This document shows, one piece after another, positions 7,070 to 39,625 of a DNA stretch of 39,625 bases; position 1 is the first letter of the stretch; the number at the start of each line of letters is the position of its first letter. A program made the translations under genes and the position numbers. Source of the stretch: a virus (taxonomy: Duplodnaviria > Heunggongvirae > Uroviricota > Caudoviricetes). The notes under the pieces are model-generated. The model made no database searches. It saw only the letters and a list, made by a program, of their open reading frames with translations, and had not been told where the DNA came from. Where the stretch lies: the IMG/VR virus record IMGVR_UViG_2545824712_000011; one strand, 5' to 3'.

Positions 7070-8484
7070 CATTCCACCGTAAATTGAATGCCTGATTTTG
7101 AGGTATATGATCCAACCTGACTCCGTGGTTCTCCTGAAGGTGTCGAATCTTGTGCTGGCGCTGCGTCAGTATTCATTGACATATACCGCTTAACGGCACT
7201 CCCCAATGATTCACCTTTTTTAACATCCAACCCCAATATCTGACCGCCATTACGCGATTGTCCAGGGTTGCCATTCGCGCTCATCCACTCGGCTTTAAAC
7301 TCATTAAACTGCGCGTTTCGTCGCTCAAGGTTTGCCATTGCATCAAGCCATCTTGCGACCGTCTCAGGGTTATCCATGTCAGTTGGCGCCCCCTGTCTAA
7401 CGATCTCAACGTCTTTATCCGTTGCTGGGCCGGGAGGTAGGAATTTAAGAACCTGACTGTTAACAAGGGCATTTTGGCGAATGCGCAAATCACGCAATGT
7501 CGTATCGCTTCCGGTAAGTTTTGCGAACATGTTCTGTGCGTTACCGAACAAACCTGTCGTTGGTTTTTCTGCTCTGAACTGTTGAGCAAGCGCACTCATG
7601 GAATTGGCTGAGTTTGATGATGCTGTGGCATTGTTTACAGCCGTCTCGATTCCTTTTTCCATGTTTACTGACAGCTTAGGTGCTTCGCTAATCAACTGCT
7701 GAGCCTTTTCCTGCGCTTGCTGCATCTTAAACCCGAACTCTTGCTGATCCAGAGCCAAGCGTTGTGCTGCGATATTGTGCCCAGTCATTGCTGACTGATA
7801 GGAAAGGTTTTGCCCTCTCGCCTGAAGTGCTTCACCAGCCTGATTGCTGCGGATTGTCTCTGCCAGCCTGCCTCGGTCAATTTCACGACCAGCCATCTTA
7901 TCCTGAACAGCAAACGCCTTTTCTGGTCCAAGCGCACCGAGAGACATAGTAGTCAGCATGTGTGATAGCTGCTCTGGATTCTGGATACCTGTCTGAATCA
8001 TCCAGTCAGCATTAGCACCAACGCGATTTAACCTGTCCTTGTTGTCAGTAATGAATTTACTGTAGGCTTCCGGCCCCTGAGAAAGAGCGACGTTAGCCCT
8101 CATGGCTAAATCGCCCATATCGTTGCGTTGCTGATCATTAAGACCGGAAAACGCCTGTTGTGCCTGTGCAACAAACGCTGGATTTTCCTGGGCAAACTTA
8201 AATAGTCCCGATGGATCACCAGAAGCCCATGCATCAGCGTGAACCTTATTGAACGCACTAATAGCTTTCTGTTGCTGTTCCTGATTGTAAATATCAGCAA
8301 CTCCAGCCAGACCACGTAACGCGGTCAGGCCAACGTTATTTGCACCTGAGCGAGCCAGTTCATTGTTTTCGCGGATCAGACCAAGCGTTGCGTTAATGTC
8401 GCTTGCCTTTGGCGCATTCTCATTTTGCGTACCGATGCCAGCCAGAAAACCACCAGAATTAATACCCTGTTGCCACGTAGCCAT
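7069..8484 (-). CDS. Ejection protein, P22 gp20-like
   Basis: 471 aa, same length and position as P22 gp20. Confidence 0.75.
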
Positions 8485-8494
8485 TGATTACCCC

Positions 8495-9187
8495 TTAAAA
8501 CAACGAGCCAAGCAGACCAAGACCGCCGCCGATCGCAGCCCCCCACGGAGTTGATGAACCAATTAATTTCGCAAGTCCGGCCCCAGCAATAGCACCAGAC
8601 GCACCTCCGCCAATAGCAGATTGCATTGCTGATGGTCTGTTGGCATTTGCCGCTGCAAGAGCCGCACTTTGCTGCGAAATCTGACTCATGTTGTTGGCAT
8701 ATGTTTGCCCGGCGTTTGCCTGTCCCTGAAGAGCGCCAAGACCGATATTTGCCAGGTTGTTGTAATTGTTCATTTGTCCAGATAGCCATTGCTGACCAAG
8801 CGTTGGTGCGATTGTTGCTAACTGATTACTGGTTGCGGTGGAACCCAATCCACCTGTTGCTTCCGCTGCCGCCAGACTCTGATAGCGAGCCTGACCTGCA
8901 AGGTCTTTATACTGCTGAGAGTTGTAATACTGGTTAAGTGCCTGACCTTGCCCCTCCAGAGACGATAAGTTTTCGAGGCTGCCGACATACTTCTCAGCCA
9001 GAGGAGTAAACGGCTTCAGGTTATTCATGATGGTGTTGAACTGCTGATTTTGCAGGTCTGCGGCATACTTCTGAGCTTCTGCTGCATACTTTGCGCTTTT
9101 ATCAGAACTGCCACCTTTCCCGCCTTTTTCAGGGCAATAAGGTTCCTCGCCACGCAGTTTTCTGCCCATCTTAAATGCATATAACAT
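8495..9187 (-). CDS. Ejection protein, P22 gp7-like
   Basis: 230 aa, Gln/Ala/Gly-rich, position between gp14 and gp20. Confidence 0.7.
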   Translation of the reverse strand: MLYAFKMGRKLRGEEPYCPEKGGKGGSSDKSAKYAAEAQKYAADLQNQQFNTIMNNLKPFTPLAEKYVGSLENLSSLEGQGQALNQYYNSQQYKDLAGQARYQSLAAAEATGGLGSTATSNQLATIAPTLGQQWLSGQMNNYNNLANIGLGALQGQANAGQTYANNMSQISQQSAALAAANANRPSAMQSAIGGGASGAIAGAGLAKLIGSSTPWGAAIGGGLGLLGSLF

Positions 9188-23002: not shown

Positions 23003-23164
23003 CGTCTTCTTCCTCGTACATTGAGCTATTCGGATCGCTCATCAGTTCTGCGCAGCAGTGCTCACACACGTGAACTTCCAGCACATGCAGCTTCTGACCG
23101 CAGTTAGCGCACGTTAAAGCCCGCTCGACGCTTTCTTGTTCGTAACTTCGATTTTGGTCAATCA
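22994..23164 (-). CDS. ninF: NinF (not in ORF track; GTG start)
   Basis: Hand translation gives (M)[55 protein letters not shown]; GTG overlaps ninE stop, stop overlaps ninG ATG. Confidence 0.65.
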
Positions 23165-23344
23165 CCTTGTTTTCCTCGCACGTTCTCTAAGCCACCGGAT
23201 ATCCCACAGGTGAGCCGTGTAATTGAAGGTTTTTACGTCAGATTCTTTTGGGATTGGCTTTCGTTTATTTCTGGAACGCTTCGTTGGAAGGTATTTGCAG
23301 TTTTCGCAGATGATGTCGGTGATACTTCGTCGCTGTCGTCTCAT
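23162..23344 (-). CDS. ninE: NinE
   Basis: 60 aa [23 protein letters not shown]...; ATG overlaps methyltransferase stop. Confidence 0.8.
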
Positions 23345-23868
23345 GCCGCCCTCCTGACGCCCTGCCCGATCGCCATCAATGCCGCTTTGGATACGGTAGT
23401 AAACATCCGTCGAGGACTGATGAACGGTCGCCAAATCAGCAGCATTGAGCCTTTACTGTTTCCCTTCTTCTCCAGCCCTGTCGATGGTTCGATAAAATTA
23501 ATCCGTCCATCAGTGATGATGCGAACTTCGTCAACACTCTCCAGAGCCTTGCTGAACCATCCGACTGACATATCCTCTGGCACAAGCATAACTACCGTCT
23601 GTCGCTGTTGTATGCACTGCTCAGCGGCTTTTTCCACCCACGGCCTGATATTGCTGTACGGTGGGTTATTCCAGATTGCACCGTGGCTTACCCACTCAGA
23701 ATTGAGCGCGTCGTCGACCTCAGTTAGCCAGTGAGCGCACAGAGCGTTTTTGTCGCTCGCTGCCGAATCCAGCCAGAATCCAAACTCAATATCCAGTGCA
23801 TCAAAAAGCCAAAGCGGCGTTTGCCAGCAGTCCTTGTCGTGTGCTGGCGTATTTGATTTGATAGTCAT
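23341..23868 (-). CDS. Orphan DNA N6-adenine methyltransferase (phage Dam-like)
   Basis: NPPY catalytic motif (WNNPPYS); start [25 protein letters not shown] typical of small phage N6A methyltransferases; no adjacent restriction gene. Confidence 0.75.
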
Positions 23869-24305
23869 GCAGCCCGGTCTCCCCATCTCGCTTTCCACTC
23901 CAGAGCCAGTCGCGCTTCGTCTGACCACTTAACGCCACGTTCTGTACCGAATGCCTGTATAAGCTCTAATATCTCCGCAAATTCGCTTACACGCATCCTG
24001 CTGGTTGACTGGCCTATTACCACAAAGCCATTCCCGGCAAGGTTAGGAACAACGTCCTGCTGCTTTAATGCTGCGGTAAACACACACTTCCAGCTTTCTG
24101 CATCCAGCCAGCGACCATGCCATTCAACCTGACGAGAGACGTCACCAAGGCAAGCCCAAAGCTTTCTGTTTTGGTCTAAGCTGCGGTTGCGTTCCTGAAT
24201 GGTTACTACGATTGGTTTGGTTGGGTCTGGAAGAATTTGCTGTACTGCGTGAATAGCGTTTTGCTGATGTGCTGGAGATCGAATTTCAAAGGTTAGTTTT
24301 TTCAT
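23865..24305 (-). CDS. ninB: NinB
   Basis: 146 aa MKKLTFEIRSPAHQQNAIHAVQQILPDPTKPIVVTIQERNRSLDQNRKLWACLGDV... as lambda NinB. Confidence 0.9.
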   Translation of the reverse strand: MKKLTFEIRSPAHQQNAIHAVQQILPDPTKPIVVTIQERNRSLDQNRKLWACLGDVSRQVEWHGRWLDAESWKCVFTAALKQQDVVPNLAGNGFVVIGQSTSRMRVSEFAEILELIQAFGTERGVKWSDEARLALEWKARWGDRAA

Positions 24306-24319
24306 GACTTCCCTCTCCC

Positions 24320-24352
24320 CCAAATAAAAAGGCCTGCGATTACCAGCAGGCC
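24320..24352 (-). terminator. tR2-like intrinsic terminator between helicase gene and ninB
   Basis: Minus strand AGGCCTGC-N8-GCAGGCCT followed by TTTTTATTT. Confidence 0.65.
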
Positions 24353-24381
24353 TGTTATTAGCTCAGTTATGTAGATGGTCA

Positions 24382-26847
24382 TCAGAATCCTCCTTTCTTC
24401 TTGGACTGCGGTTCCTCGCGTTCACGGCGGCGCATTTCAGCAGACTGTTGGTCTGTGTCATAAATAGCGCCATTTGCCTGAATGCAATACACCGTGCCGG
24501 TATTGCCATGACGATTGAGACGAAGGATTAGTTCGGTTTCACCAGGTGGAACACTGTCATCAAAAGCACCTTCACGATGGATCCCAACCCAATAATCGCA
24601 ATCCTGTTCAATCTGCCCTGTATCTCGCGAGTCACTTGGTAATGGGCGTTTATTGGTTCGGCTTTCCAATGCGCGGTTAAGCTGCGTCAGAAGCACAACA
24701 ACGCAATCAAGCTCTTTGGCAAGGTTCTTCAGTCCTTTGGTGATCATGCCGTAAGCAAGGTCGTTACGATCGGCTTTCTCAGCGGTCATTAGTGTCAGGT
24801 AATCGACCAGAATCATCCCAACACATCCTTTTTCTCGCTTGATTCGACGGCTTTCGCTGACGATTTGAGCCAGAGATAATCCAGGCGTGTCGTCGATGTA
24901 AAGCAGGTCGATTTCACTCAAGCGATTGGCTGTTTCGATCGCCCTGTTGAAGTCACCATCGTAATCACCCTGATAGCCGTCATCGGCGTCATTTGTCGCC
25001 GGAAGGTAAAAAATATTCGGGTTAACACCAGACTTCTGCCCTACCAGTTTTTCCAGTATCTGATCACCTGGCATTTCAAGGCTGAACATCAAAGCGGGCT
25101 TTTTCTCATGCACTGCGCAATTGATTGCCATCTGGCTGTATAGCGTGGTGTTGTGGGTTAGAATGTATCCGTCAGTTGCATACAAATGTCTCTCGTGGGA
25201 TACCATGATGCAAATGCACTCTTCACGTCCAATATACTCAACCGACGTGATAACAGGCGCACTTGTTTTGATGCGTTTTGCAGTGAATTTTTGCTTCAGG
25301 CGTGGAGATTTTATGTGTGATAGAACCTCATCAGGCAACCTGATTGCGCAAATATGGGCATCCATACCTTTGCGCATTTCTCCCTTATAACTGAATTTCG
25401 GCTCCTGTTTGGTTGTCATACGACACACGCCACCAAGAGAATGCACCAGCCGCTTTACACCATCTGACAGGAACTTGCTTGCCGAGCTAAAGCGCAGGGC
25501 ATTATTTCCTTCAACCCAACCATCGGTTTCAAGTAATCCGCATAGAACATCAATACGAGTTTTCTTATCAGCAGAAAAAATAATATCTGGGATAATTTTA
25601 ATCTCTGACATCCGGCCGTAGATACCAAGCCGTTGCATAACCCGCGTAAGAGATAATTTGCGGCTAAACTTGTGAGATAGGGAGTAATCGCAGCCAGAAA
25701 CATGTCTGACTTCAATATCGTCACCCACTTCAGATCTTACTCGCTCAATGATGTATGGTTCCGTCATGCTGATTCGTGGCGTACCTGCAAGATTTCCATC
25801 GCCAAGTAACGCACCTAACAGCCATGGGCTAATCCCTAAATCAACAGGCAATCCGAAGTCACCGCTAATACCAGGAACATGAATGCGGCTTTGATAGCGA
25901 ACGCATTCCATCATGTCCCGTAGGCGGCAGGTGTCTACAACATCAACGCCACCGGTAATACGGTTACTATGAATTTCCCACAAATGATCATCCGCGCAAT
26001 CAACGGTTCTTCCGTCAGAGAACGTAACTCGGTAAATATCTCGCTCCCCTTGAGGAAAAACTCCAGACACGAATGATGGTTGTCCATCCACTGATGCTAG
26101 GGAATCTCCAACACATACGTCACGAAATGTTGTCCATGAACCATCAGCAAGCAAAATGCGTGAATTAAGCGGTTGCGCTTTCCCCATCTTAGGGCGAGCG
26201 CCAATGACAAACAGAGAGCCTTTCACCAGACCTTTCGGTGACAGCATCCTGTCCAGCGATGGGATCCCTGTGCTCATTCCCCGTTGTTCGCCTGATGGGT
26301 CAAATCGCTTCTCAAGGTCGCTAACCCAGTCTTCCATGACCTCACCAAATGAACGAAGGCCGCGACGCGATCCGGTTTTTGCATGGTCTGTCAGTTGCGT
26401 GAAAATCGACTGAATAGCTTCGTACTTCTGCGTTGCAGTCATTCCGTTGCGGGAATAGAGCAATTCCGTCGCTTCAGTCATGCGGTTGATGGCGTAGCGT
26501 TCCATTGCGGTTTCACGAACCTGCATTGCATAGGCAACGATGTTTGCGGCGCTTGGCGTGTTCTTTGCGATCTCAGCGATATAAGCAAAACCGCCAACAG
26601 ACGCCGTTAATGATTTGCGCTCCAGTTCATCGAAAAGCGTCAGCCCATCTACTGGCTTTTGCTCCCGGTGCATTCTGGTTATTTCATCGAAAATGATTTT
26701 GTGTGGTCGGCTGTAAAATGAATCAGGCTTCAGCATCGCCAGAACTTTCCGGACGCGCTCACTGCTGTCATCATCCAGAAGCAATCCACCAATAACCGCC
26801 TGCTCTGCCTCGATGCTATGGGGCGGCGCATAAAAATTATCGGTCAT
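24382..26847 (-). CDS. Replicative DnaB-like helicase (P22 gene 12 / lambda P position) interrupted by an intein
   Basis: DnaB N-terminal domain (PHSIEAEQAVIGGLLLDD), Walker A GARPKMGK split from TTLYSQMAINCA...KPALMFSLEM by a 343-aa insert, C-terminal RecA-like core. Confidence 0.85.
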   Translation of the reverse strand: MTDNFYAPPHSIEAEQAVIGGLLLDDDSSERVRKVLAMLKPDSFYSRPHKIIFDEITRMHREQKPVDGLTLFDELERKSLTASVGGFAYIAEIAKNTPSAANIVAYAMQVRETAMERYAINRMTEATELLYSRNGMTATQKYEAIQSIFTQLTDHAKTGSRRGLRSFGEVMEDWVSDLEKRFDPSGEQRGMSTGIPSLDRMLSPKGLVKGSLFVIGARPKMGKAQPLNSRILLADGSWTTFRDVCVGDSLASVDGQPSFVSGVFPQGERDIYRVTFSDGRTVDCADDHLWEIHSNRITGGVDVVDTCRLRDMMECVRYQSRIHVPGISGDFGLPVDLGISPWLLGALLGDGNLAGTPRISMTEPYIIERVRSEVGDDIEVRHVSGCDYSLSHKFSRKLSLTRVMQRLGIYGRMSEIKIIPDIIFSADKKTRIDVLCGLLETDGWVEGNNALRFSSASKFLSDGVKRLVHSLGGVCRMTTKQEPKFSYKGEMRKGMDAHICAIRLPDEVLSHIKSPRLKQKFTAKRIKTSAPVITSVEYIGREECICIMVSHERHLYATDGYILTHNTTLYSQMAINCAVHEKKPALMFSLEMPGDQILEKLVGQKSGVNPNIFYLPATNDADDGYQGDYDGDFNRAIETANRLSEIDLLYIDDTPGLSLAQIVSESRRIKREKGCVGMILVDYLTLMTAEKADRNDLAYGMITKGLKNLAKELDCVVVLLTQLNRALESRTNKRPLPSDSRDTGQIEQDCDYWVGIHREGAFDDSVPPGETELILRLNRHGNTGTVYCIQANGAIYDTDQQSAEMRRREREEPQSKKKGGF
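25150..26178 (-). other. Intein (343 aa, Ala1 ... THN) with LAGLIDADG homing-endonuclease domain, in helicase P-loop
   Basis: Insert between GK and T of Walker A; block A-like RILLADGSWTTFRDV, block B DHLW, two dodecapeptide motifs WLLGALLGDGN and VLCGLLETDGW, C-terminal YILTHN followed by Thr. Confidence 0.8.
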
Positions 26848-27727
26848 CGTGTTCACCCTCACGAACTTTCAGGTAGGTATTGTCGTTAAGCAGGAAATCA
26901 AATCCCTTTTTGTGCCAGACGGTTCCGCGTTGATGGTTTGGGCGTTCTTCGAACATCCATCGGCAATTTTCGCCTACGTAGCTCAAATAATTTCTCCAGT
27001 CCTGCATCGTGAACCCATGCCCGTCAAGCTGGCGGGTTATCACTCCGGCTTTGCGCCAGAACGTTCGGATCTGGTTTTTACGCTTGTCATTCAGTGCGCG
27101 GATTCTTGGCGCTTCAGGAAGGATTTCGTGGTAAGCATCGACAACATCCTGACAGCTAACGGAAGGTTTTTTCTTGTCAGACTTTTTGTCTGCTGTGGCA
27201 CTCTCTAATACGTCAGTATTAGAGATATTATTTATATTATTGTTTATGGACAACCGTTGGACAACCGTTGGACAATCTCCGCTGAGAGCCGCGCCATTAC
27301 TGGTGTTTGCGTTGGACAACCGTTGGACAACCGTTGGACAATTTTTTGCCTGAAAATCGTCATATTTAACGATTGTAAACAGGCTAAATTTCTTCCCCAT
27401 CGAGCAAATATTAAGCATCCCTTTCGACTCAAAAGTCCGTAATAAGCTCCGAACTTTGTTGTCGGGGATGAATGTTTCTCTGACCAGCGACGGGCGTCCA
27501 GTTATCATCTGACCGCGATCAACAGTTATCGGACCGATATCCGTATTGACGACAGTAGATTCGTGATTAGCCTTGAGGATTAAGTGAAGCCAAAGATGTA
27601 CTGCCTGAGAGTCCTTATAGAGCCTGCTGTCCATAAACTGGCGGTGTATAGAGACATACCCCATACTGGATGCCTCCTGATGTTGTACAGGGTTATGCCT
27701 GTAATCAGCTAACTTAACGACGCCCAT
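26837..27727 (-). CDS. Replication initiator (lambda O / P22 gene 18 analogue)
   Basis: Position between cII and helicase; contains the iteron array in its coding sequence. Confidence 0.7.
   Translation of the reverse strand: MGVVKLADYRHNPVQHQEASSMGYVSIHRQFMDSRLYKDSQAVHLWLHLILKANHESTVVNTDIGPITVDRGQMITGRPSLVRETFIPDNKVRSLLRTFESKGMLNICSMGKKFSLFTIVKYDDFQAKNCPTVVQRLSNANTSNGAALSGDCPTVVQRLSINNNINNISNTDVLESATADKKSDKKKPSVSCQDVVDAYHEILPEAPRIRALNDKRKNQIRTFWRKAGVITRQLDGHGFTMQDWRNYLSYVGENCRWMFEERPNHQRGTVWHKKGFDFLLNDNTYLKVREGEHDDR
27244..27346. repeat. Origin iterons: two clusters of three 11-bp direct repeats GGACAACCGTT, followed by A+T-rich stretch
   Basis: GGACAACCGTT GGACAACCGTT GGACAATCTCC at 27248-27280 and again at 27314-27346; AT-rich 27341-27400. 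Confidence 0.8.
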
Positions 27728-28482: not shown

Positions 28483-28562
28483 AGACTCGCTCCGAAATTA
28501 AAGAACACTTAAATTATCCACTAAAGGAATCTTAAGTCAAGTTTATTTAAGATGTCTTAACT
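28483..28562. promoter_or_regulatory. OR / PR / PRM region
   Basis: Divergent cro and c2; several CTTAA...TTAAG operator-like half sites. Confidence 0.6.
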
Positions 28563-29213
28563 ATGAAAACTCAATTGATGGGAGAGCGCATTCGCGCTCG
28601 GAGAAAAGAACTCAAGATCAGGCAGGCCGCACTTGGAAAGATGGTCGGCGTGTCTAATGTTGCCATATCTCAGTGGGAACGCTCTGAGACAGAGCCAAAT
28701 GGAGAGAATCTTCTCGCCCTGGCTAATGCGTTGAAGTGTTCCCCTGACTATCTGATGAAAGGAGAGGAAAGTCTTTCAAATATTGCCTATCACAGTAGGC
28801 ATGATCCAAGAGGGTCATACCCTCTGATTAGCTGGGTGAGCGCAGGATGCTGGATGGAAGCTGTAGAACCATATCATAAGCGTGCAATAGATAACTGGTA
28901 CGATACAACCGTAGACTGTTCAGAAGATTCGTTTTGGTTGGACGTGAAGGGAGACTCAATGACGGCTCCGGCCGGTCTCAGTATCCCTGAAGGAATGATA
29001 ATACTCGTCGATCCTGAAGTAGAGCCGCGTAACGGGAAACTGGTAGTTGCAAAGCTCGAAGGAGAAAACGAGGCAACTTTCAAGAAGTTAGTTATTGATG
29101 CAGGCAGGAAGTTTCTAAAACCACTTAACCCACAATATCCGATGATCGAGATCAACGGAAACTGCAAAATCATCGGCGTAGTTGTCGATGCAAAACTAGC
29201 AAACCTTCCATAA
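28563..29213 (+). CDS. c2: Prophage repressor C2 (P22 type, LexA-like C-terminal domain)
   Basis: MKTQLMGERIRARRKELKIRQAALGKMVGVSNVAISQWERSETEPNGENL... near-identical to P22 C2 as recalled. Confidence 0.95.
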   Translation: MKTQLMGERIRARRKELKIRQAALGKMVGVSNVAISQWERSETEPNGENLLALANALKCSPDYLMKGEESLSNIAYHSRHDPRGSYPLISWVSAGCWMEAVEPYHKRAIDNWYDTTVDCSEDSFWLDVKGDSMTAPAGLSIPEGMIILVDPEVEPRNGKLVVAKLEGENEATFKKLVIDAGRKFLKPLNPQYPMIEINGNCKIIGVVVDAKLANLP

Positions 29214-33322: not shown

Positions 33323-33911
33323 TGATTCACATCTTACAGACGAAGTGGTTAACGCCGCTTTCGAAGGTACCAATTTCGGGCGCACTGATTTCCGCACCAT
33401 TCTGGCAGAAACAGTTATGAAGCGTGCTGCTGGCTATCACTCTGGCTACACGGCAACGACTATCTGTATTCGCCTGGGATTGCTTGGCAAACACGATCGC
33501 CCGACAAAACTCGGCCTGACCTTCGCTTTCCATCACTACTACAGGCCATGCGTTCGCGAAGCGCTGATTTCGCATAACAGCCTTGAAGTATGGGGCAAAA
33601 CTTGGAGCACAGGAGTCCGCCAAATGAGCAACATCAACAAACAGGCGCTGATTGCAAAAATCAAAAAGCAGGCCGAAAGCTTCGACACAGTGGTGTTGAG
33701 AGAGGATGAAGCTAACGCGCTGCTGGATGAGCTGGAAGCAGCAGAGAAGCGGATTGCTGAACTGGAAGCGCGGGAAATACTGCTCCCGGAACGTAGCAGC
33801 ATGCTTCATCGAACAGATTTTCACGAGGATTACCAAACGGTAATGGCATACAAAGTTTCTGAAGTCATCGATGCAATCCGCGCTACTGGCATTCGCATCA
33901 AAGGAGAGTGA
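33309..33911 (+). CDS. Hypothetical protein (ea region)
   Basis: 200-aa ORF overlapping neighbours. Confidence 0.5.
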   Translation: MSIVDDSHLTDEVVNAAFEGTNFGRTDFRTILAETVMKRAAGYHSGYTATTICIRLGLLGKHDRPTKLGLTFAFHHYYRPCVREALISHNSLEVWGKTWSTGVRQMSNINKQALIAKIKKQAESFDTVVLREDEANALLDELEAAEKRIAELEAREILLPERSSMLHRTDFHEDYQTVMAYKVSEVIDAIRATGIRIKGE

Positions 33912-33912
33912 G

Positions 33913-34488
33913 ATGAGCACTATCACTAAAGAACGTATCGAATTGTTCATTAAATCCCCGCTTGAAAACGGGCTTACCCGTGGCGAACAAATGGAACTGG
34001 CACGAATTGCGCTGGCATCACTGGAAGCAGAGCCTATTGGCGCATTCCACATTGCAGAACAGCAAGTTGACGGCACAAGTGACTACATCAAGGATGGGGA
34101 ATGGCCTATTGATAATGGGATTATTGAGGTCTACGCCGCCCCACCCATTCCAGTAGTACCTGAAGAAAAACCAATGCCTAACCCTCTTAAAATGTACGCG
34201 GTCGATGCTGTTGCCGCTATTGCAGAGGTGAGAGGCTGGAATGCCTGTCGTGCCGCTATGCTTCAGGGTAAATCCGAACAACCACAAAACGCACAACAAA
34301 ATATTCCGGAAAATATTCCCGGTGGCAACTCTCCGGTAACTCCGGATGGTTGGGTTATGGTGCCGAAGGAGCCAACTCAGGCCATGATTAAAGCGTGGCT
34401 ATCAGAGATTGCTAACTTTCGCGGTCATGCTGCTGGTTACAGGGCTGCTATAGAAGCAGCACCACAACTGGAGGTTAACCGTGGCTAA
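33913..34488 (+). CDS. Hypothetical protein (ea region)
   Basis: Start MSTITKERIELF... with GGAG upstream. Confidence 0.5.
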   Translation: MSTITKERIELFIKSPLENGLTRGEQMELARIALASLEAEPIGAFHIAEQQVDGTSDYIKDGEWPIDNGIIEVYAAPPIPVVPEEKPMPNPLKMYAVDAVAAIAEVRGWNACRAAMLQGKSEQPQNAQQNIPENIPGGNSPVTPDGWVMVPKEPTQAMIKAWLSEIANFRGHAAGYRAAIEAAPQLEVNRG

Positions 34489-34765
34489 CCTGCAACTTGC
34501 CGTCAAAGGTGAATACTTCGATGCCATGATTCGAGGAGAGAAAACGGAAGAGTATCGACTGTGTAATGACTACTGGGATAAGCGAATTATGTTCCGGGAA
34601 TATGACCGCCTGATTATCACAAAGGGATATCCGAAGCGTGACGATTCCAGCCGCAGAATTGACGTTCCGTATAGCGGCTATGAAATCAAGACAATCACAC
34701 ATCCGCACTTCGGCGATAAACCGGTAAAGGTGTTCGCGATAAAGGTGAATATCAGCAATGAATAA
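34481..34765 (+). CDS. Small hypothetical protein, possible ASCH/PUA-like fold
   Basis: GTG start with GGAGG upstream; KGEYFDAMIRGEKTEEYR resembles ASCH-type motif (weak). Confidence 0.4.
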   Translation: MANLQLAVKGEYFDAMIRGEKTEEYRLCNDYWDKRIMFREYDRLIITKGYPKRDDSSRRIDVPYSGYEIKTITHPHFGDKPVKVFAIKVNISNE

Positions 34766-34769
34766 CAAT

Positions 34770-34797
34770 CCTCGCGCTCGCGGGGATTTCTTTTATA
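34770..34797 (+). terminator. Hairpin plus T-tract
   Basis: CCTCGCG...CGCGGGG then ATTTCTTTTAT. Confidence 0.45.
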
Positions 34798-34807
34798 TGG
34801 GGATAAT

Positions 34808-35608
34808 ATGACCATCCACTTTCACGGCAGCCCAATATGGGGTGATGAGCATGCCCATACAGATATGCTGATTAAAGCCCTTTACCGTGATGGTGGGGCT
34901 TTTGTTTCATTTGCCAGACCAGAGCAGATGAAAAAGATTGCCATGTTCCCTTGTGATATACGCCTTGATAACGGTGCTTTTAGCGACTGGATGAAAGCAT
35001 TAAAGAAAGGCACTCCGGTAGACTGGAGTAAGAGACGAGCAAAATTCTACGACTTTGTTGGGAAGTGGTTCAGCAGAATTGAATGGTTTCTTATACCTGA
35101 CGTTATCGAAGGGACAGAGGCAGAAAACGACGAGCAGATTGAGTTGGTTCCTGATTGGCTAAAATCAAAAGCGGTTCCGGTCTGGCATACCGACGAATCA
35201 ATTGAACGTCTTTTACGCCTTTCTGGCAAATTTGAATGGGTGGCGATTGGATGCTGCGGCCCACACAGGCACATACGCTCTAAATGGTGGGAACAGAGAA
35301 TGGATGAAGTTTTCACTGAGCTTTATATCAATCGTAATTTGAAAGTGAAAATTCATGGTCTTCGAATGCTCGACGTGAGAGTTCTTGGTATGTATCCGTT
35401 CGCCAGTGCGGATTCTACTAATGTTGCTGTTAACGTACCGAAGACAGAGAAGCGATTTCCTGAGATTACCGACAAACTGGCACGCACAGCTGTACTTCGC
35501 GCTGCTATTGAAAAGGTGCACCCGCCATCGATATCAGCATGGGTAGACAGAAAGATGAGAGAGCCGGCGCAAGCCGGTTTTTTATTTGAATTCACCGACG
35601 CCGCTTAA
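34808..35608 (+). CDS. Hypothetical 266-aa protein flanked by 16-bp direct repeats
   Basis: Long ORF with GGGGA upstream; function not recognisable. Confidence 0.55.
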   Translation: MTIHFHGSPIWGDEHAHTDMLIKALYRDGGAFVSFARPEQMKKIAMFPCDIRLDNGAFSDWMKALKKGTPVDWSKRRAKFYDFVGKWFSRIEWFLIPDVIEGTEAENDEQIELVPDWLKSKAVPVWHTDESIERLLRLSGKFEWVAIGCCGPHRHIRSKWWEQRMDEVFTELYINRNLKVKIHGLRMLDVRVLGMYPFASADSTNVAVNVPKTEKRFPEITDKLARTAVLRAAIEKVHPPSISAWVDRKMREPAQAGFLFEFTDAA

Positions 35609-35626
35609 TGCGGATTTCTTTTATAT
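35598..35626 (+). terminator. Hairpin plus T-tract
   Basis: GCCGC-TTAAT-GCGG then ATTTCTTTTAT. Confidence 0.45.
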
Positions 35627-35666
35627 GAACTCGCTACGGCGGTTTTTGTTTTATGGAGATGATAAA

Positions 35667-35837
35667 TGCACTTCCGAGTCACAGGTGAATGGAATGGAGA
35701 GCCATTCGACAGGGTTATCGAAGCAGAGGACATCAACGACTGCTATAACCACTGGATGATATGGGCGCAGATAGCGCATGCAGACGTAACCAATATTCGA
35801 ATTGAAGAACTGAAAGAACACCAAGACGCCTGATGGC
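35667..35837 (+). CDS. Small hypothetical protein (not in ORF track)
   Basis: Hand translation MHFRVTGEWNGEPFDRVIEAEDINDCYNHWMIWAQIAHADVTNIRIEELKEHQDA; GGAGATG upstream. Confidence 0.45.
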
Positions 35838-35850
35838 GGTTTTTTATTGC
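35829..35850 (+). terminator. Hairpin plus T-tract
   Basis: CGCC-TGAT-GGCG then GTTTTTTATT. Confidence 0.4.
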
Positions 35851-35855
35851 CTGAT

Positions 35856-35871
35856 TTGCAGGTTCGATTCC
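35856..35871 (+). other. tRNA T-arm-like fragment TTGCAGGTTCGATTCC
   Basis: Canonical T-stem/T-loop sequence with no upstream tRNA body; 19 bp before xis ATG. Confidence 0.6.
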
Positions 35872-35890
35872 CTATTCGGAGATAGCACTC

Positions 35891-36091
35891 ATGCAACACG
35901 AACTACAGCCTGATTCCCTGGTTGATTTGAAATTCATCATGGCTGATACTGGCTTTGGTAAAACCTTCATCTACGACCGGATTAAGTCCGGCGACCTGCC
36001 AAAAGCCAAAGTTATCCACGGTCGAGCAAGATGGTTATATCGTGACCATTGTGAATTCAAAAATAAGCTCTTAAGCCGCGCCAATGGGTAA
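35891..36091 (+). CDS. xis: Excisionase / AlpA-family DNA-binding protein
   Basis: HTH-like FIMADTGFGKTFIYDRIKSGDLPKAKVIHGRARWLYRD; last gene of early-left operon. Confidence 0.7.
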   Translation: MQHELQPDSLVDLKFIMADTGFGKTFIYDRIKSGDLPKAKVIHGRARWLYRDHCEFKNKLLSRANG

Positions 36092-36164
36092 AATAGCGGG
36101 TAAAATATTTCTCACATCTAAAAAATACCATTCCAATCAACCCCCTGCCGCTTCAAGTAGATGT

Positions 36165-36179
36165 CTGCAGGGGACACCA
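36165..36179 (+). other. tRNA 3' end fragment CTGCAGGGGACACCA (att core candidate)
   Basis: Abuts exactly the T-arm fragment at 35856-35871 to form ...GCAGG-TTCGATT-CCTGC-AGGGGAC-A-CCA; 165 bp upstream of int. Confidence 0.65.
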
Positions 36180-36303
36180 TCCCGCCGTACACTACCGTCT
36201 ACCATTGTCTATAAACCCCATGTAACCATATAAAAATAAAGAGATTTTATTCTCATGACGTCCATTGCCGTCTATTGAAATCAAGTAAATCTATGGGGCA
36301 TAA

Positions 36304-36343
36304 TTGGGGGCATTGCTGGTTCGATTGTAAATGTGCCCCCAAT
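36304..36343 (+). promoter_or_regulatory. Stem-loop (9-bp stem TTGGGGGCA/TGCCCCCAA) ending 1 nt before int ATG
   Basis: Read directly; 21-nt loop contains GGTTCGATT. Confidence 0.6.
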
Positions 36344-37630
36344 ATGTCCAGAAATACCCTCAACAAATTAACAGACCGTCAGTGCAAAGCAGCTAAGCCA
36401 CGAGACAAAACTTATAAATTGTCTGATGGTGGTGGTCTTTATCTTGAAGTATCCCAGACCGGGTCGAAGTATTGGCGAATGAAGTATCGCCGCCCATCAG
36501 ATAAGAAAGAAGACAGACTTGCTTTTGGTGTATATCCAACCATTAGCTTACAAGACGCCAGAGAAAAACGAGACAACGCCAAAAAGTTGTTAGTCAAGGG
36601 GATAGATCCCAAAGCAGAGCAAAGAGCAGCAAAAGCAGAAGAAAAAGGTGCATTCACTTTTGAGACAATAGGACGTCAATGGGTTGAAAGCCACCAGATG
36701 TGGAACGAAGCCCACCGAAAACGCGTACTTAGAAGCCTTGAAATGTATATTTTCCCTCACATTGGCACTTCGGATATTCGCAAACTGGAGGCGATGACAA
36801 TTTTACCTTTGTTTAAGAAGGTAGATGACGCCGGGAAACACGATACAGCCAACCGACTTAAACAACGAGTTAAGGACATCATACATAGCGCCCGTCTGAG
36901 CGGCATTAAGACAGAAATCATCACGAATGATCTCGATGTCCGGTTAATGCAATATGAAACTAAGCATCATGCCGCACTACATCCCAGAGATTTACCAGAC
37001 TTTTTCACTCGATTGGGCAGCTTTAAAGGTAATCCTCTTACCCGCCTTGCCATTGAGCTAACCATGTTGACCTTTGTTCGTTCAAGCGAGTTAAGGTTTG
37101 CCCGTTGGAAAGAGTTTGACCTTGATCGGGCTGAGTGGATTATCCCTAAAAAAAGAGAGCCTATCGATGGTGTGAGGTTTTCCACCCGTGGCACAAAGAC
37201 GGGAAAAGACGAACATATCGTGCTTCTTAGCCGTCAGGCTGTTTCTATTGTAAAGCAGTTGAGAGAACTAAGCGGAAGCTACGATGTTGTGTTTCCGAAT
37301 GAAAGAAACACCAAAGGCGTGATGAGTGAAAACACGGTAAACAAGGCATTACGCTTAATGGGCTATAACACGCAAGAAGACGTAACTGGACATGGATTCC
37401 GTGCCACAGCCTGTAGTTCCCTGATGGAGTCCGGTTTGTGGCAGGAGGACGCAGTAGAGCGCCAGATGAGCCACAAAGAATATAAAGACGTTAAAAGAGC
37501 CTACAAGCACAAGGCTGATTACTTAGAAGAGCGCAAACTAATGCTTCAATGGTGGGCAGATTATCTGGACGCCAATCGAGAAATACACATAAGCCCTTAC
37601 GAGTTCGGAAGGAGAACACGCCGTGACTAA
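36344..37630 (+). CDS. int: Tyrosine integrase, P4 family
   Basis: N-terminus MSRNTLNKLTDRQCKAAKPRDKTYKLSDGGGLYLEV... and C-terminal HGFRAT...VKRAYKHKADYLEERKLMLQWWADYLD typical of P4-like integrases. Confidence 0.9.
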   Translation: MSRNTLNKLTDRQCKAAKPRDKTYKLSDGGGLYLEVSQTGSKYWRMKYRRPSDKKEDRLAFGVYPTISLQDAREKRDNAKKLLVKGIDPKAEQRAAKAEEKGAFTFETIGRQWVESHQMWNEAHRKRVLRSLEMYIFPHIGTSDIRKLEAMTILPLFKKVDDAGKHDTANRLKQRVKDIIHSARLSGIKTEIITNDLDVRLMQYETKHHAALHPRDLPDFFTRLGSFKGNPLTRLAIELTMLTFVRSSELRFARWKEFDLDRAEWIIPKKREPIDGVRFSTRGTKTGKDEHIVLLSRQAVSIVKQLRELSGSYDVVFPNERNTKGVMSENTVNKALRLMGYNTQEDVTGHGFRATACSSLMESGLWQEDAVERQMSHKEYKDVKRAYKHKADYLEERKLMLQWWADYLDANREIHISPYEFGRRTRRD

Positions 37631-38378
37631 GATGACAGGACTAGATGCGTTTTATAACGAGTCAGAAGATAAAATCTGGTTTGGTAATCTGATCAGCGAA
37701 CTGGCAAGACTAAACAATGAAAATGAAAGAATGATAGCTGCCGCTATCTTAAGTAACTACAGATTGAGCAAGACTAAACCAGATACTTTAGGGGGGCTGG
37801 GCTTTTATCAGTTCGATTGGGTATCTGGTTTTACGACAAATGAAGACTTTGAAAAGCAGTGTGTGGAGTTTTTAGGTCTTCTGGCTATGGGGCATGAATA
37901 CAGGGAGAGCCCGATACCGGGGGAAGAAGGGACTTTCAACGTTAGGAAAGGAGAAGACTTTTTATATCACGATGATGAGGATGATTGGTATGGGTCTTAC
38001 GATTCGTTTTATTTCAAGCGATCCGAGGTTGTGAACTTCTTCCCAGAACTGGATATGAATGTTCCAGATAACGAACCAGAAATTGGAGCACTGTCAAAAA
38101 AAGTAGAAAGAGAACAAAACTGGAGAGGAAAAGATACGGCTTTAAAGATGATCGCCGGAATGGCGATTGCCTTATTTGAATCAAGCAAAGATTTCCATAG
38201 TGGAGGAAACCTTAGTATCAATAGGGTTAGTGCCCAAGTAATAGAAAACAACATAATATTCGGGAACGATGAAGACAGCGATACCCACCCAGATACATTT
38301 CGGAGATTGCTAACGAACGCTTTGGATAAGTACGCCCCCAAATTTAAGAACAAAGCAACCAAAAAGCGTCCAAAATAA
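37623..38378 (+). CDS. Hypothetical 251-aa protein co-transcribed with int
   Basis: Start overlaps int stop (GTG 37623 or ATG 37632); acidic, no recognisable motif. Confidence 0.55.
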   Translation: MTKMTGLDAFYNESEDKIWFGNLISELARLNNENERMIAAAILSNYRLSKTKPDTLGGLGFYQFDWVSGFTTNEDFEKQCVEFLGLLAMGHEYRESPIPGEEGTFNVRKGEDFLYHDDEDDWYGSYDSFYFKRSEVVNFFPELDMNVPDNEPEIGALSKKVEREQNWRGKDTALKMIAGMAIALFESSKDFHSGGNLSINRVSAQVIENNIIFGNDEDSDTHPDTFRRLLTNALDKYAPKFKNKATKKRPK

Positions 38379-39047: not shown

Positions 39048-39242
39048 ATGATTAATTACCTGACCGCTAAAGACGCAGCAGAATATCTTGGCGTCTGTCT
39101 GTCACGCTTCTATCAGTTAAAGCGATATATCCGAAGCTTTCCTCCCTATATAAATCAGACCATCAATGGTCGCAAGCGCCGGGTGTGGCTTGCCTCCAGC
39201 CTTGATCAATTTGCCGACAGATTTCTGGGGGGACGAAAATGA
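39048..39242 (+). CDS. Small HTH DNA-binding protein (excisionase/MerR-like)
   Basis: LTAKDAAEYLGVCLSRFYQLKR HTH-like. Confidence 0.5.
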   Translation: MINYLTAKDAAEYLGVCLSRFYQLKRYIRSFPPYINQTINGRKRRVWLASSLDQFADRFLGGRK

Positions 39243-39625
39243 GCACTCTTACACGCTCTCAGGTCGCCGCGAATATACGCGATATCCTACTAAGTGGCAG
39301 GAAGCTTACCCCAAAAGAGTTTGACGACATATTAAGGAAAGCCGGAAATCACGAACGTAGTCGCGTTTTAACGCTGTTACGCAACGATTGGGGAATTCCT
39401 GTTGAGCAGTTTAAAACAGGGGCGTATCACGTCACAGAACGCAATTTAGAAGCATACCACAGCGATAAAGACGAAACATTGAAGATCTGGAGGACGAACG
39501 CCAGATATGTAAAGACATTGCGTAAGGTAAACATAACGTTGTCGTTGTTGCGTGGGCTGGTGGGTAAAGTGCCTGAAGACACGCTTAGAACTGTTTACAA
39601 GGGTATTGAAACCAAATACCTGTGA
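39239..39625 (+). CDS. Hypothetical protein
   Basis: 128-aa ORF overlapping upstream stop; ends at window edge with TGA. Confidence 0.5.
   Translation: MSTLTRSQVAANIRDILLSGRKLTPKEFDDILRKAGNHERSRVLTLLRNDWGIPVEQFKTGAYHVTERNLEAYHSDKDETLKIWRTNARYVKTLRKVNITLSLLRGLVGKVPEDTLRTVYKGIETKYL

Follow-up and report, generated by a model that had tools for sequence, protein, structure and literature searches.

The closest described system to the gene examined here is the orphan enzyme of the Shiga toxin (Stx) phage VT2-Sa, named M.EcoVT2Dam, whose target is reported as GATC in a passage of PMC6602927 that cites Radlinska and Bujnicki 2001. The "dam" coding sequence of phage Phi24B is 100% identical to the VT2-Sakai protein NP_050531 and 99% identical to the HK97 copy (PMC3342100), and the Dam enzyme of phage T1 is also reported to be GATC-specific (PMC4996451). 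We analyzed a gene of this type, dam, in a 39,625-nucleotide stretch of a Caudoviricetes virus (IMG/VR record IMGVR_UViG_2545824712_000011; the whole stretch is hereafter called the window). The gene occupies positions 23341 to 23868 on the minus strand and, judging from its open reading frame (ORF) and profile matches, is predicted to encode a 175-amino-acid (aa) orphan DNA N6-adenine methyltransferase of the M.EcoVT2Dam type. Very probably, the product is a functional, stand-alone, S-adenosylmethionine (AdoMet)-dependent enzyme of the phage "Dam" family (PF05869/TIGR01712), an allele of M.EcoVT2Dam that methylates the adenine of GATC.

Identity with M.EcoVT2Dam

The dam protein matches the product of VT2-Sakai orf32 (NP_050531) at 174 of 175 positions, with equal length, and shows no difference (100% identity) from the phage Lahn1 copy. 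The sole difference from NP_050531, A51V, falls at a position that is variable among homologues. In the entire VT2-Sakai annotation, orf32 is the only methyltransferase, and it sits in the identical slot between ninB and ninE, with identical gene overlaps. The M.EcoVT2Dam gene was reportedly cloned on its own in 2001. Because M.EcoVT2Dam, one residue away, is reported to methylate GATC, the target motif of the dam product would appear to be settled rather than an open question. Another VT2-Sakai gene, orf4, located near int, was considered as the real M.EcoVT2Dam and was ruled out, as it encodes a DUF551 protein.

Reading frame, family membership and conserved residues

The dam ORF runs on the minus strand from an ATG at 23868-23866 to a TGA at 23343-23341. 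A longer, 195-aa form that starts at a GTG and extends up to 23928 is mechanically possible. The 175-aa form is supported over it, because the N terminus of the homologues (MTIKSNTP...) is conserved and because a Shine-Dalgarno-like GGGGAGA (23878 to 23884, minus strand; GATGGGGAGACCGGGCTGC-ATG) lies 9 to 10 nucleotides upstream of the ATG, within the 3′ end of ninB.

The original prediction had placed a small N6-adenine methyltransferase with an NPPY motif at exactly these coordinates, and the profile searches agree with it. The protein matches Pfam PF05869 (Dam) over profile positions 1 to 167 of 169 (E value of 1.2e-64; 217.5 bits against a cutoff of 28.1) and the NCBIfam equivalog TIGR01712 (phage N-6-adenine-methyltransferase) over positions 1 to 165 of 165 (E value of 3.4e-79; 264.1 bits against 97.05); both matches are far beyond chance. 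It also matches phrog_111 in PHROGs (E value of 4e-87), and its best matches in PADLOC are "orphan methyltransferase" models. The Pfam scan of the protein gave no match to PF02086 (the alpha-class Dam family, MethyltransfD12) and none to MT-A70, and the catalytic motif is NPPY, not DPPW.

Conservation was assessed in two alignments, one of 24 close homologues (59 to 98% identity) and one of 68 diverse family members (32 to 66% identity). The original prediction had named loss of catalytic residues on alignment as an outcome that would refute it, and none is lost. N68-P-P-Y71, the catalytic motif IV (codons at 23656 to 23667, minus strand, read from the sequence and the alignments), is among the 48 columns that are invariant across the close homologues, and the diverse relatives carry NPPY in 64 of 68 cases, NPPF in 3 and NCPY in 1. 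T17, D34, N68, P70, and R122 are invariant among the diverse relatives, while conservation is 90% or higher at P18, A37, W59, P69, Y71, L95, W104, and F125. The N-terminal "xTP" motif, W15-Q-T17-P18 (codons at 23815 to 23826, minus strand), which includes the invariant T17 and a P18 present in 66 of the 68 diverse homologues, is typical of gamma-class amino-methyltransferases, and we infer that it is motif X. A motif I-like stretch on strand beta-1, L33-D34-S-A-A-S38 (codons at 23755 to 23772, minus strand; strand E31-34 of the structural model), holds the invariant D34 and the conserved A37 and probably contacts AdoMet, a role that we presume from the analogous LEPAC motif in M.TaqI.

The ratio of nonsynonymous to synonymous substitution rates (dN/dS) relative to the VT2 and 434 copies is 0.06 to 0.09, from few differing sites; comparisons with distant homologues were unusable, as their synonymous sites are saturated. 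An exhaustive profile search of the family retrieved 8,568 cluster representatives at an E value of ≤0.001. The predicted catalytic and cofactor-binding residues are kept across a very large family.

Predicted fold and target recognition

The AlphaFold2 model of the dam protein (predicted local distance difference test score of 95.2; predicted template modeling score of 0.91) is a single domain over all 175 aa, with a class I (Rossmann-fold) AdoMet-dependent fold and conserved cofactor-binding residues. By sequence search of the PDB, which returned only chance matches to SdiA (E value of ~0.09), no member of the family has a solved structure. The best fold matches are catalytic domains of N6-adenine methyltransferases: PCIF1, an RNA cap adenosine N6-methyltransferase (score of 11.5; also the top match in Foldseek), M.TaqI (9.9), M.BseCI (9.8), MmeI (9.6), CamA (9.1), the M subunits of type I systems (8 to 9), and E. 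coli Dam, T4 Dam, and DpnM (7.8 to 8.5, over ~105 residues). The motifs follow each other in gamma-class order (xTP at 15 to 18, the LD.AA strand at 33 to 38, NPPY at 68 to 71), and the protein ends ~30 residues past the last core strand. In the model, the protein is a bare catalytic domain that is most similar to those of gamma-class N6-adenine methyltransferases and has no discrete C-terminal target-recognition domain. Because that domain is absent, the modeled protein is gamma-like in topology and not a canonical gamma-class member. We suggest that GATC would be read by loops of the catalytic domain itself, because a separate target-recognition domain is absent.

A protein of this build could instead be a relaxed-specificity or near non-specific adenine methyltransferase that, at lytic levels, would modify many non-GATC sites and confer broad protection from restriction. 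Its 175-aa length and the model of a catalytic domain without a target-recognition domain would suit such an enzyme. Cloned M.Btr190III, a prophage enzyme related to T1Dam, methylates off-target sites to a significant extent (PMC4996451), and several further adenine methyltransferases of prophages lack specificity (PMC7556043, PMC4659465). We nevertheless consider this unlikely, given that the known non-specific phage enzymes (Hia5, M.EcoGI/GII, and the phiP27 type) are described separately from the dam type, that a Providencia prophage gene located after Q, which may be of the non-specific type, belongs to PF01555, and that M.EcoVT2Dam, one residue apart, is reported to be GATC-specific.

The fold match to PCIF1 also raises the idea that the enzyme acts physiologically on something other than duplex DNA or depends on a partner, as with an Stx-prophage MT-A70 enzyme that was found to methylate 16S rRNA together with a partner (PMC10810198). 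That enzyme, from phage PA8, belongs to a different family (DPPW, MT-A70), however, and lies near int, outside the nin region, whereas the protein in the window has no MT-A70 match. The PCIF1 match is at the level of the fold only (15% identity), homologues in Yersinia and Providencia prophages (66 to 68% identity) and T1 Dam are not beside ninB, and M.EcoVT2Dam is reported to be GATC-specific. We regard a non-duplex substrate or an obligatory partner as highly improbable.

Gene neighborhood and lack of a restriction partner

The position of dam between ninB and ninE, as proposed in the original prediction, is borne out by profile matches of both flanking genes. Upstream, ninB (orf; 23865 to 24305, minus strand) encodes a recombination mediator (PF05772, E value of 3.9e-54), and its TGA overlaps the ATG of dam; with its own ATG at 24305, ninB is 441 bp long, as in lambda and in the annotation by the Prokaryotic Genome Annotation Pipeline (PGAP). 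Downstream, the ATG of ninE (23162 to 23344, minus strand; PF05322, E value of 3.2e-43) overlaps the TGA of dam. Both junctions are ATGA stop/start overlaps (23865-23868 with ninB and 23341-23344 with ninE), and dam would be translationally coupled to both neighbors. Such tight gene packing is typical of the nin regions of lambdoid phages (PMC8022706). Past NinE, the gene order continues with NinF, NinG, NinH, a NinI-type phosphatase, and the antiterminator Q. In lambda, ninC and ninD are seen in the slot between ninB and ninE, as had been predicted.

The gene was also predicted to be an orphan, and no restriction endonuclease was found beside it, the immediate neighbors being nin genes. Scans of the nin genes, the unassigned early-region ORFs, and the end ORFs against Pfam, PHROGs, NCBIfam, and PADLOC gave no match to nuclease or restriction-modification families; the structural-gene half of the window was assessed through its homology with N7, HK620, and Sf6 instead of an ORF-by-ORF scan. 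The Yersinia and Providencia homologues lie in other early-region contexts, where neither a nuclease gene nor ninB accompanies them, and a restriction partner was likewise absent from the other gene contexts inspected. These homologues and T1 Dam speak against an obligatory partnership with NinB, which we rejected, and the NinB/Orf literature that we examined reports no link of this protein to methylation.

In the Providencia prophages with the 66%-identical Dam, a second methyltransferase gene (PF01555, N6_N4_Mtase) lies just 3′ of the Q antiterminator gene (7892-8534), and a Lar restriction-alleviation gene is nearby, which places three anti-restriction-type functions at one early/late junction. 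Database proteins that fuse Dam with NinE or NinB domains also exist (233 to 235 aa and 184 to 209 aa); these entries probably stem from read-through or frameshifted gene calls where the genes overlap at ATGA, and not from real fusions.

Predicted expression

A PR-like promoter (TTGACT-16-GATAAT; 28513 to 28540, minus strand), recognized by its match to the consensus, lies between a cI-like repressor gene (28563 to 29213, plus strand; HTH_3 and Peptidase_S24 domains) and the rightward early operon, of which dam is part. A strong hairpin resembling an intrinsic terminator (24330 to 24353, minus strand; an 8-bp stem with 6 GC pairs and a T-run, TTTTATTT tail) separates the DnaB-like helicase gene from ninB, at the position of tR2 in lambda and 434; in 434, a terminator is annotated at the corresponding site ahead of ninB. 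Because dam is located downstream of a tR2-like terminator in a PR operon, this arrangement suggests that it is probably a delayed-early lytic gene. From this anatomy, dam would be expressed after N antitermination and would be largely silent in a repressed prophage. The predicted silence agrees with repeated accounts of prophage methyltransferases being silent in lysogens (PMC4659465, PMC4996451) and with the finding that expression of the Phi24B dam depends on induction (PMC3342100).

The reported silence of prophage methyltransferases could also be taken as a sign that dam has lost its activity and is a remnant passed on through mosaic recombination. Silence in lysogens is, however, what would be expected of a gene in a PR operon and is not a sign of inactivity. 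The frame runs to full length and keeps every conserved residue, a single conservative substitution separates the protein from a characterized enzyme, dN/dS is well below 1, the start/stop overlaps and the Shine-Dalgarno sequence are preserved, and the gene is conserved in more than 1,500 E. coli genomes. We consider the chance that dam is a remnant to be negligible.

Proposed role and points against it

Host Dam leaves the virion DNA of P22 and lambda undermethylated, perhaps because replication outpaces the enzyme (PMC8022706). The most likely role of the phage enzyme would be to keep fast-replicating phage DNA fully GATC-methylated when host Dam lags. Full methylation would shield packaged DNA from any restriction enzymes in the next host that cut GATC in a methylation-sensitive manner, and it might also make phage DNA refractory to nicking by MutH. 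The original prediction had proposed protection from host restriction or altered gene expression for such enzymes, and either would be a reasonable role for dam.

Several observations weigh against the reading of dam as a GATC methyltransferase that is made early in lytic growth and serves this purpose. The GATC specificity of M.EcoVT2Dam is known to us second-hand, via citing literature, and the promoter and terminator calls are consensus matches of a kind that is about as frequent in shuffled sequence. The benefit of a phage Dam is not obvious, as the host already has one, and full GATC methylation would sensitize the DNA to methyl-dependent enzymes of the DpnI type. Lastly, the depletion of GATC in the window (observed/expected ratio of 0.51) fits poorly with a picture in which protected DNA has no need to avoid the site; other palindromes are depleted too.

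Two questions follow, both of which concern the whole family rather than this window: how a 175-residue catalytic domain reads GATC without a recognition domain, and what a phage gains by duplicating a host activity. Candidate gains are complete methylation of DNA that replicates fast, evasion of GATC-type restriction or of MutH, and effects on the stability of lysogens. Stable lysogeny by 933W reportedly requires host Dam, according to work to which PMC3342100 refers.

A role beyond copying host Dam is suggested by the missing recognition domain, by an RNA cap methyltransferase being the closest solved relative, and by the placement of the gene in a recombination module (ninB/orf, ninG/rap). 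The enzyme may accordingly methylate adenines beyond GATC, or adenines on single-stranded replication or recombination intermediates, although we think it improbable. If it did, phage DNA would evade mismatch repair directed by MutH, together with a broader set of restriction systems than GATC cutters alone.

Distribution of dam and other features of the prophage

The 528-bp dam gene is present at 95 to 100% DNA identity in 1,566 of 5,426 complete E. coli genomes (~29%), as well as in phages SfI, 434, Sf6, Sf101, HK140, HK97, and IME10 and in many Stx-converting phages. Among phage records, 244 have a protein that is at least 95% identical and 1,850 have a family member. Classical phage 434 has the exact ninB-dam-ninE order. 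The window as a whole represents a reverse-oriented prophage of the P22-like (N7/HK620/Sf6-like) type, its integrase gene lying at 36275 to 37630, and another prophage with a 100% identical dam gene is an otherwise different mosaic. Judged by this distribution, dam is a standard, common, named, and interchangeable module of lambdoid phages and is not peculiar to the window. PGAP routinely annotates it as "phage N-6-adenine-methyltransferase"; it is an already known, ordinary gene and carries little weight as a discovery.

The window contains 101 GATC sites, compared with 196 expected under a Markov model, and a GATC-poor stretch at ~33500 to 36600. CTAG (0.44), GGCC (0.43), and AGCT (0.67) are likewise depleted, and the GATC statistics were rejected as a clue to dam function for that reason.

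The helicase gene upstream of the tR2-like hairpin (24382 to 26862, minus strand) encodes a DnaB-like replicative helicase of 826 aa. Its Walker A motif (GARPKMGK | A...THN | T) is interrupted by an insertion of ~343 aa (approximately 25150 to 26178) with weak Hint and LAGLIDADG matches, and a 458-aa helicase of another prophage aligns on either side of it. From its sequence, the insertion resembles an intein that includes a homing endonuclease and has Ala, not Cys or Ser, as its first residue.

In the early-left region, a 266-aa ORF (34808 to 35608, plus strand) matches PHROG 887, "queuine tRNA-ribosyltransferase" (E value of 3e-102), and has no match in Pfam, NCBIfam, or PDB sequences. RefSeq lists a "queuine tRNA-ribosyltransferase" in phage HK106, in a region that matches the half of the window in which this ORF lies. 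The ORF may encode a DpdA-like enzyme that inserts 7-deazaguanine into DNA, and it would then be a second DNA-modification gene in this prophage. Past the integrase gene are ORFs at 37623 to 38378 (plus strand; 251 aa, GTG start) and 39239 to 39625 (plus strand; 128 aa, truncated by the window end). Neither has a match in Pfam, PHROGs, or PADLOC, and the 251-aa ORF also has none in NCBIfam.

Comparison with known methyltransferases

E. coli Dam, T4 Dam, and DpnM belong to the alpha class (PF02086) and have no sequence-family relationship to the dam protein. In alpha-class enzymes, the target-recognition domain is inserted between the cofactor-binding and catalytic halves, separating motifs III and IV. 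The GATC target shared with host Dam is, going by these family assignments, a case of convergence and not of orthology. M.TaqI, M.BseCI, type I HsdM, MmeI, and PCIF1 all have large extra target-recognition domains, which the dam protein lacks; identity between the dam protein and the gamma-class enzymes or PCIF1 is only 12 to 17%, and PCIF1 acts on RNA caps.

M.EcoPA8orf6770P/M.EcoGV resembles dam in being prophage-borne in E. coli and annotated as a GATC adenine methyltransferase (PMC10810198). It differs in belonging to the MT-A70 family (DPPW), in its location near int, in its need for the partner PNB-2, and in its preference for 16S rRNA. These differences in family, location, and PNB-2 dependence rule out dam as the "prophage rRNA methyltransferase" of Stx phage PA8.

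T1 Dam (M.EcoT1Dam) shares PF05869, the motif order, NPPY, and orphan status with the dam protein, but the two are only 33% identical, and T1 Dam is longer (237 aa), being extended at its N terminus and carrying an insertion ahead of the GR..F motif. T1 Dam also comes from a virulent phage and is encoded outside any nin region. Within the nin region, lambda ninC (which encodes a 3′-phosphoadenosine 5′-phosphosulfate [PAPS]-reductase-like protein) and ninD share the ninB-ninE slot with dam, but they encode unrelated proteins, which points to module replacement and not to homology. The closest system is the M.EcoVT2Dam type itself, namely, the "dam" of Phi24B, 933W-type Stx phages, HK97, 434, Sf6, SfI, and Lahn1, which is the same gene; the copy in the window differs from M.EcoVT2Dam of the Stx phage in being carried by a P22-like (Sf6/HK620/N7-like) prophage.
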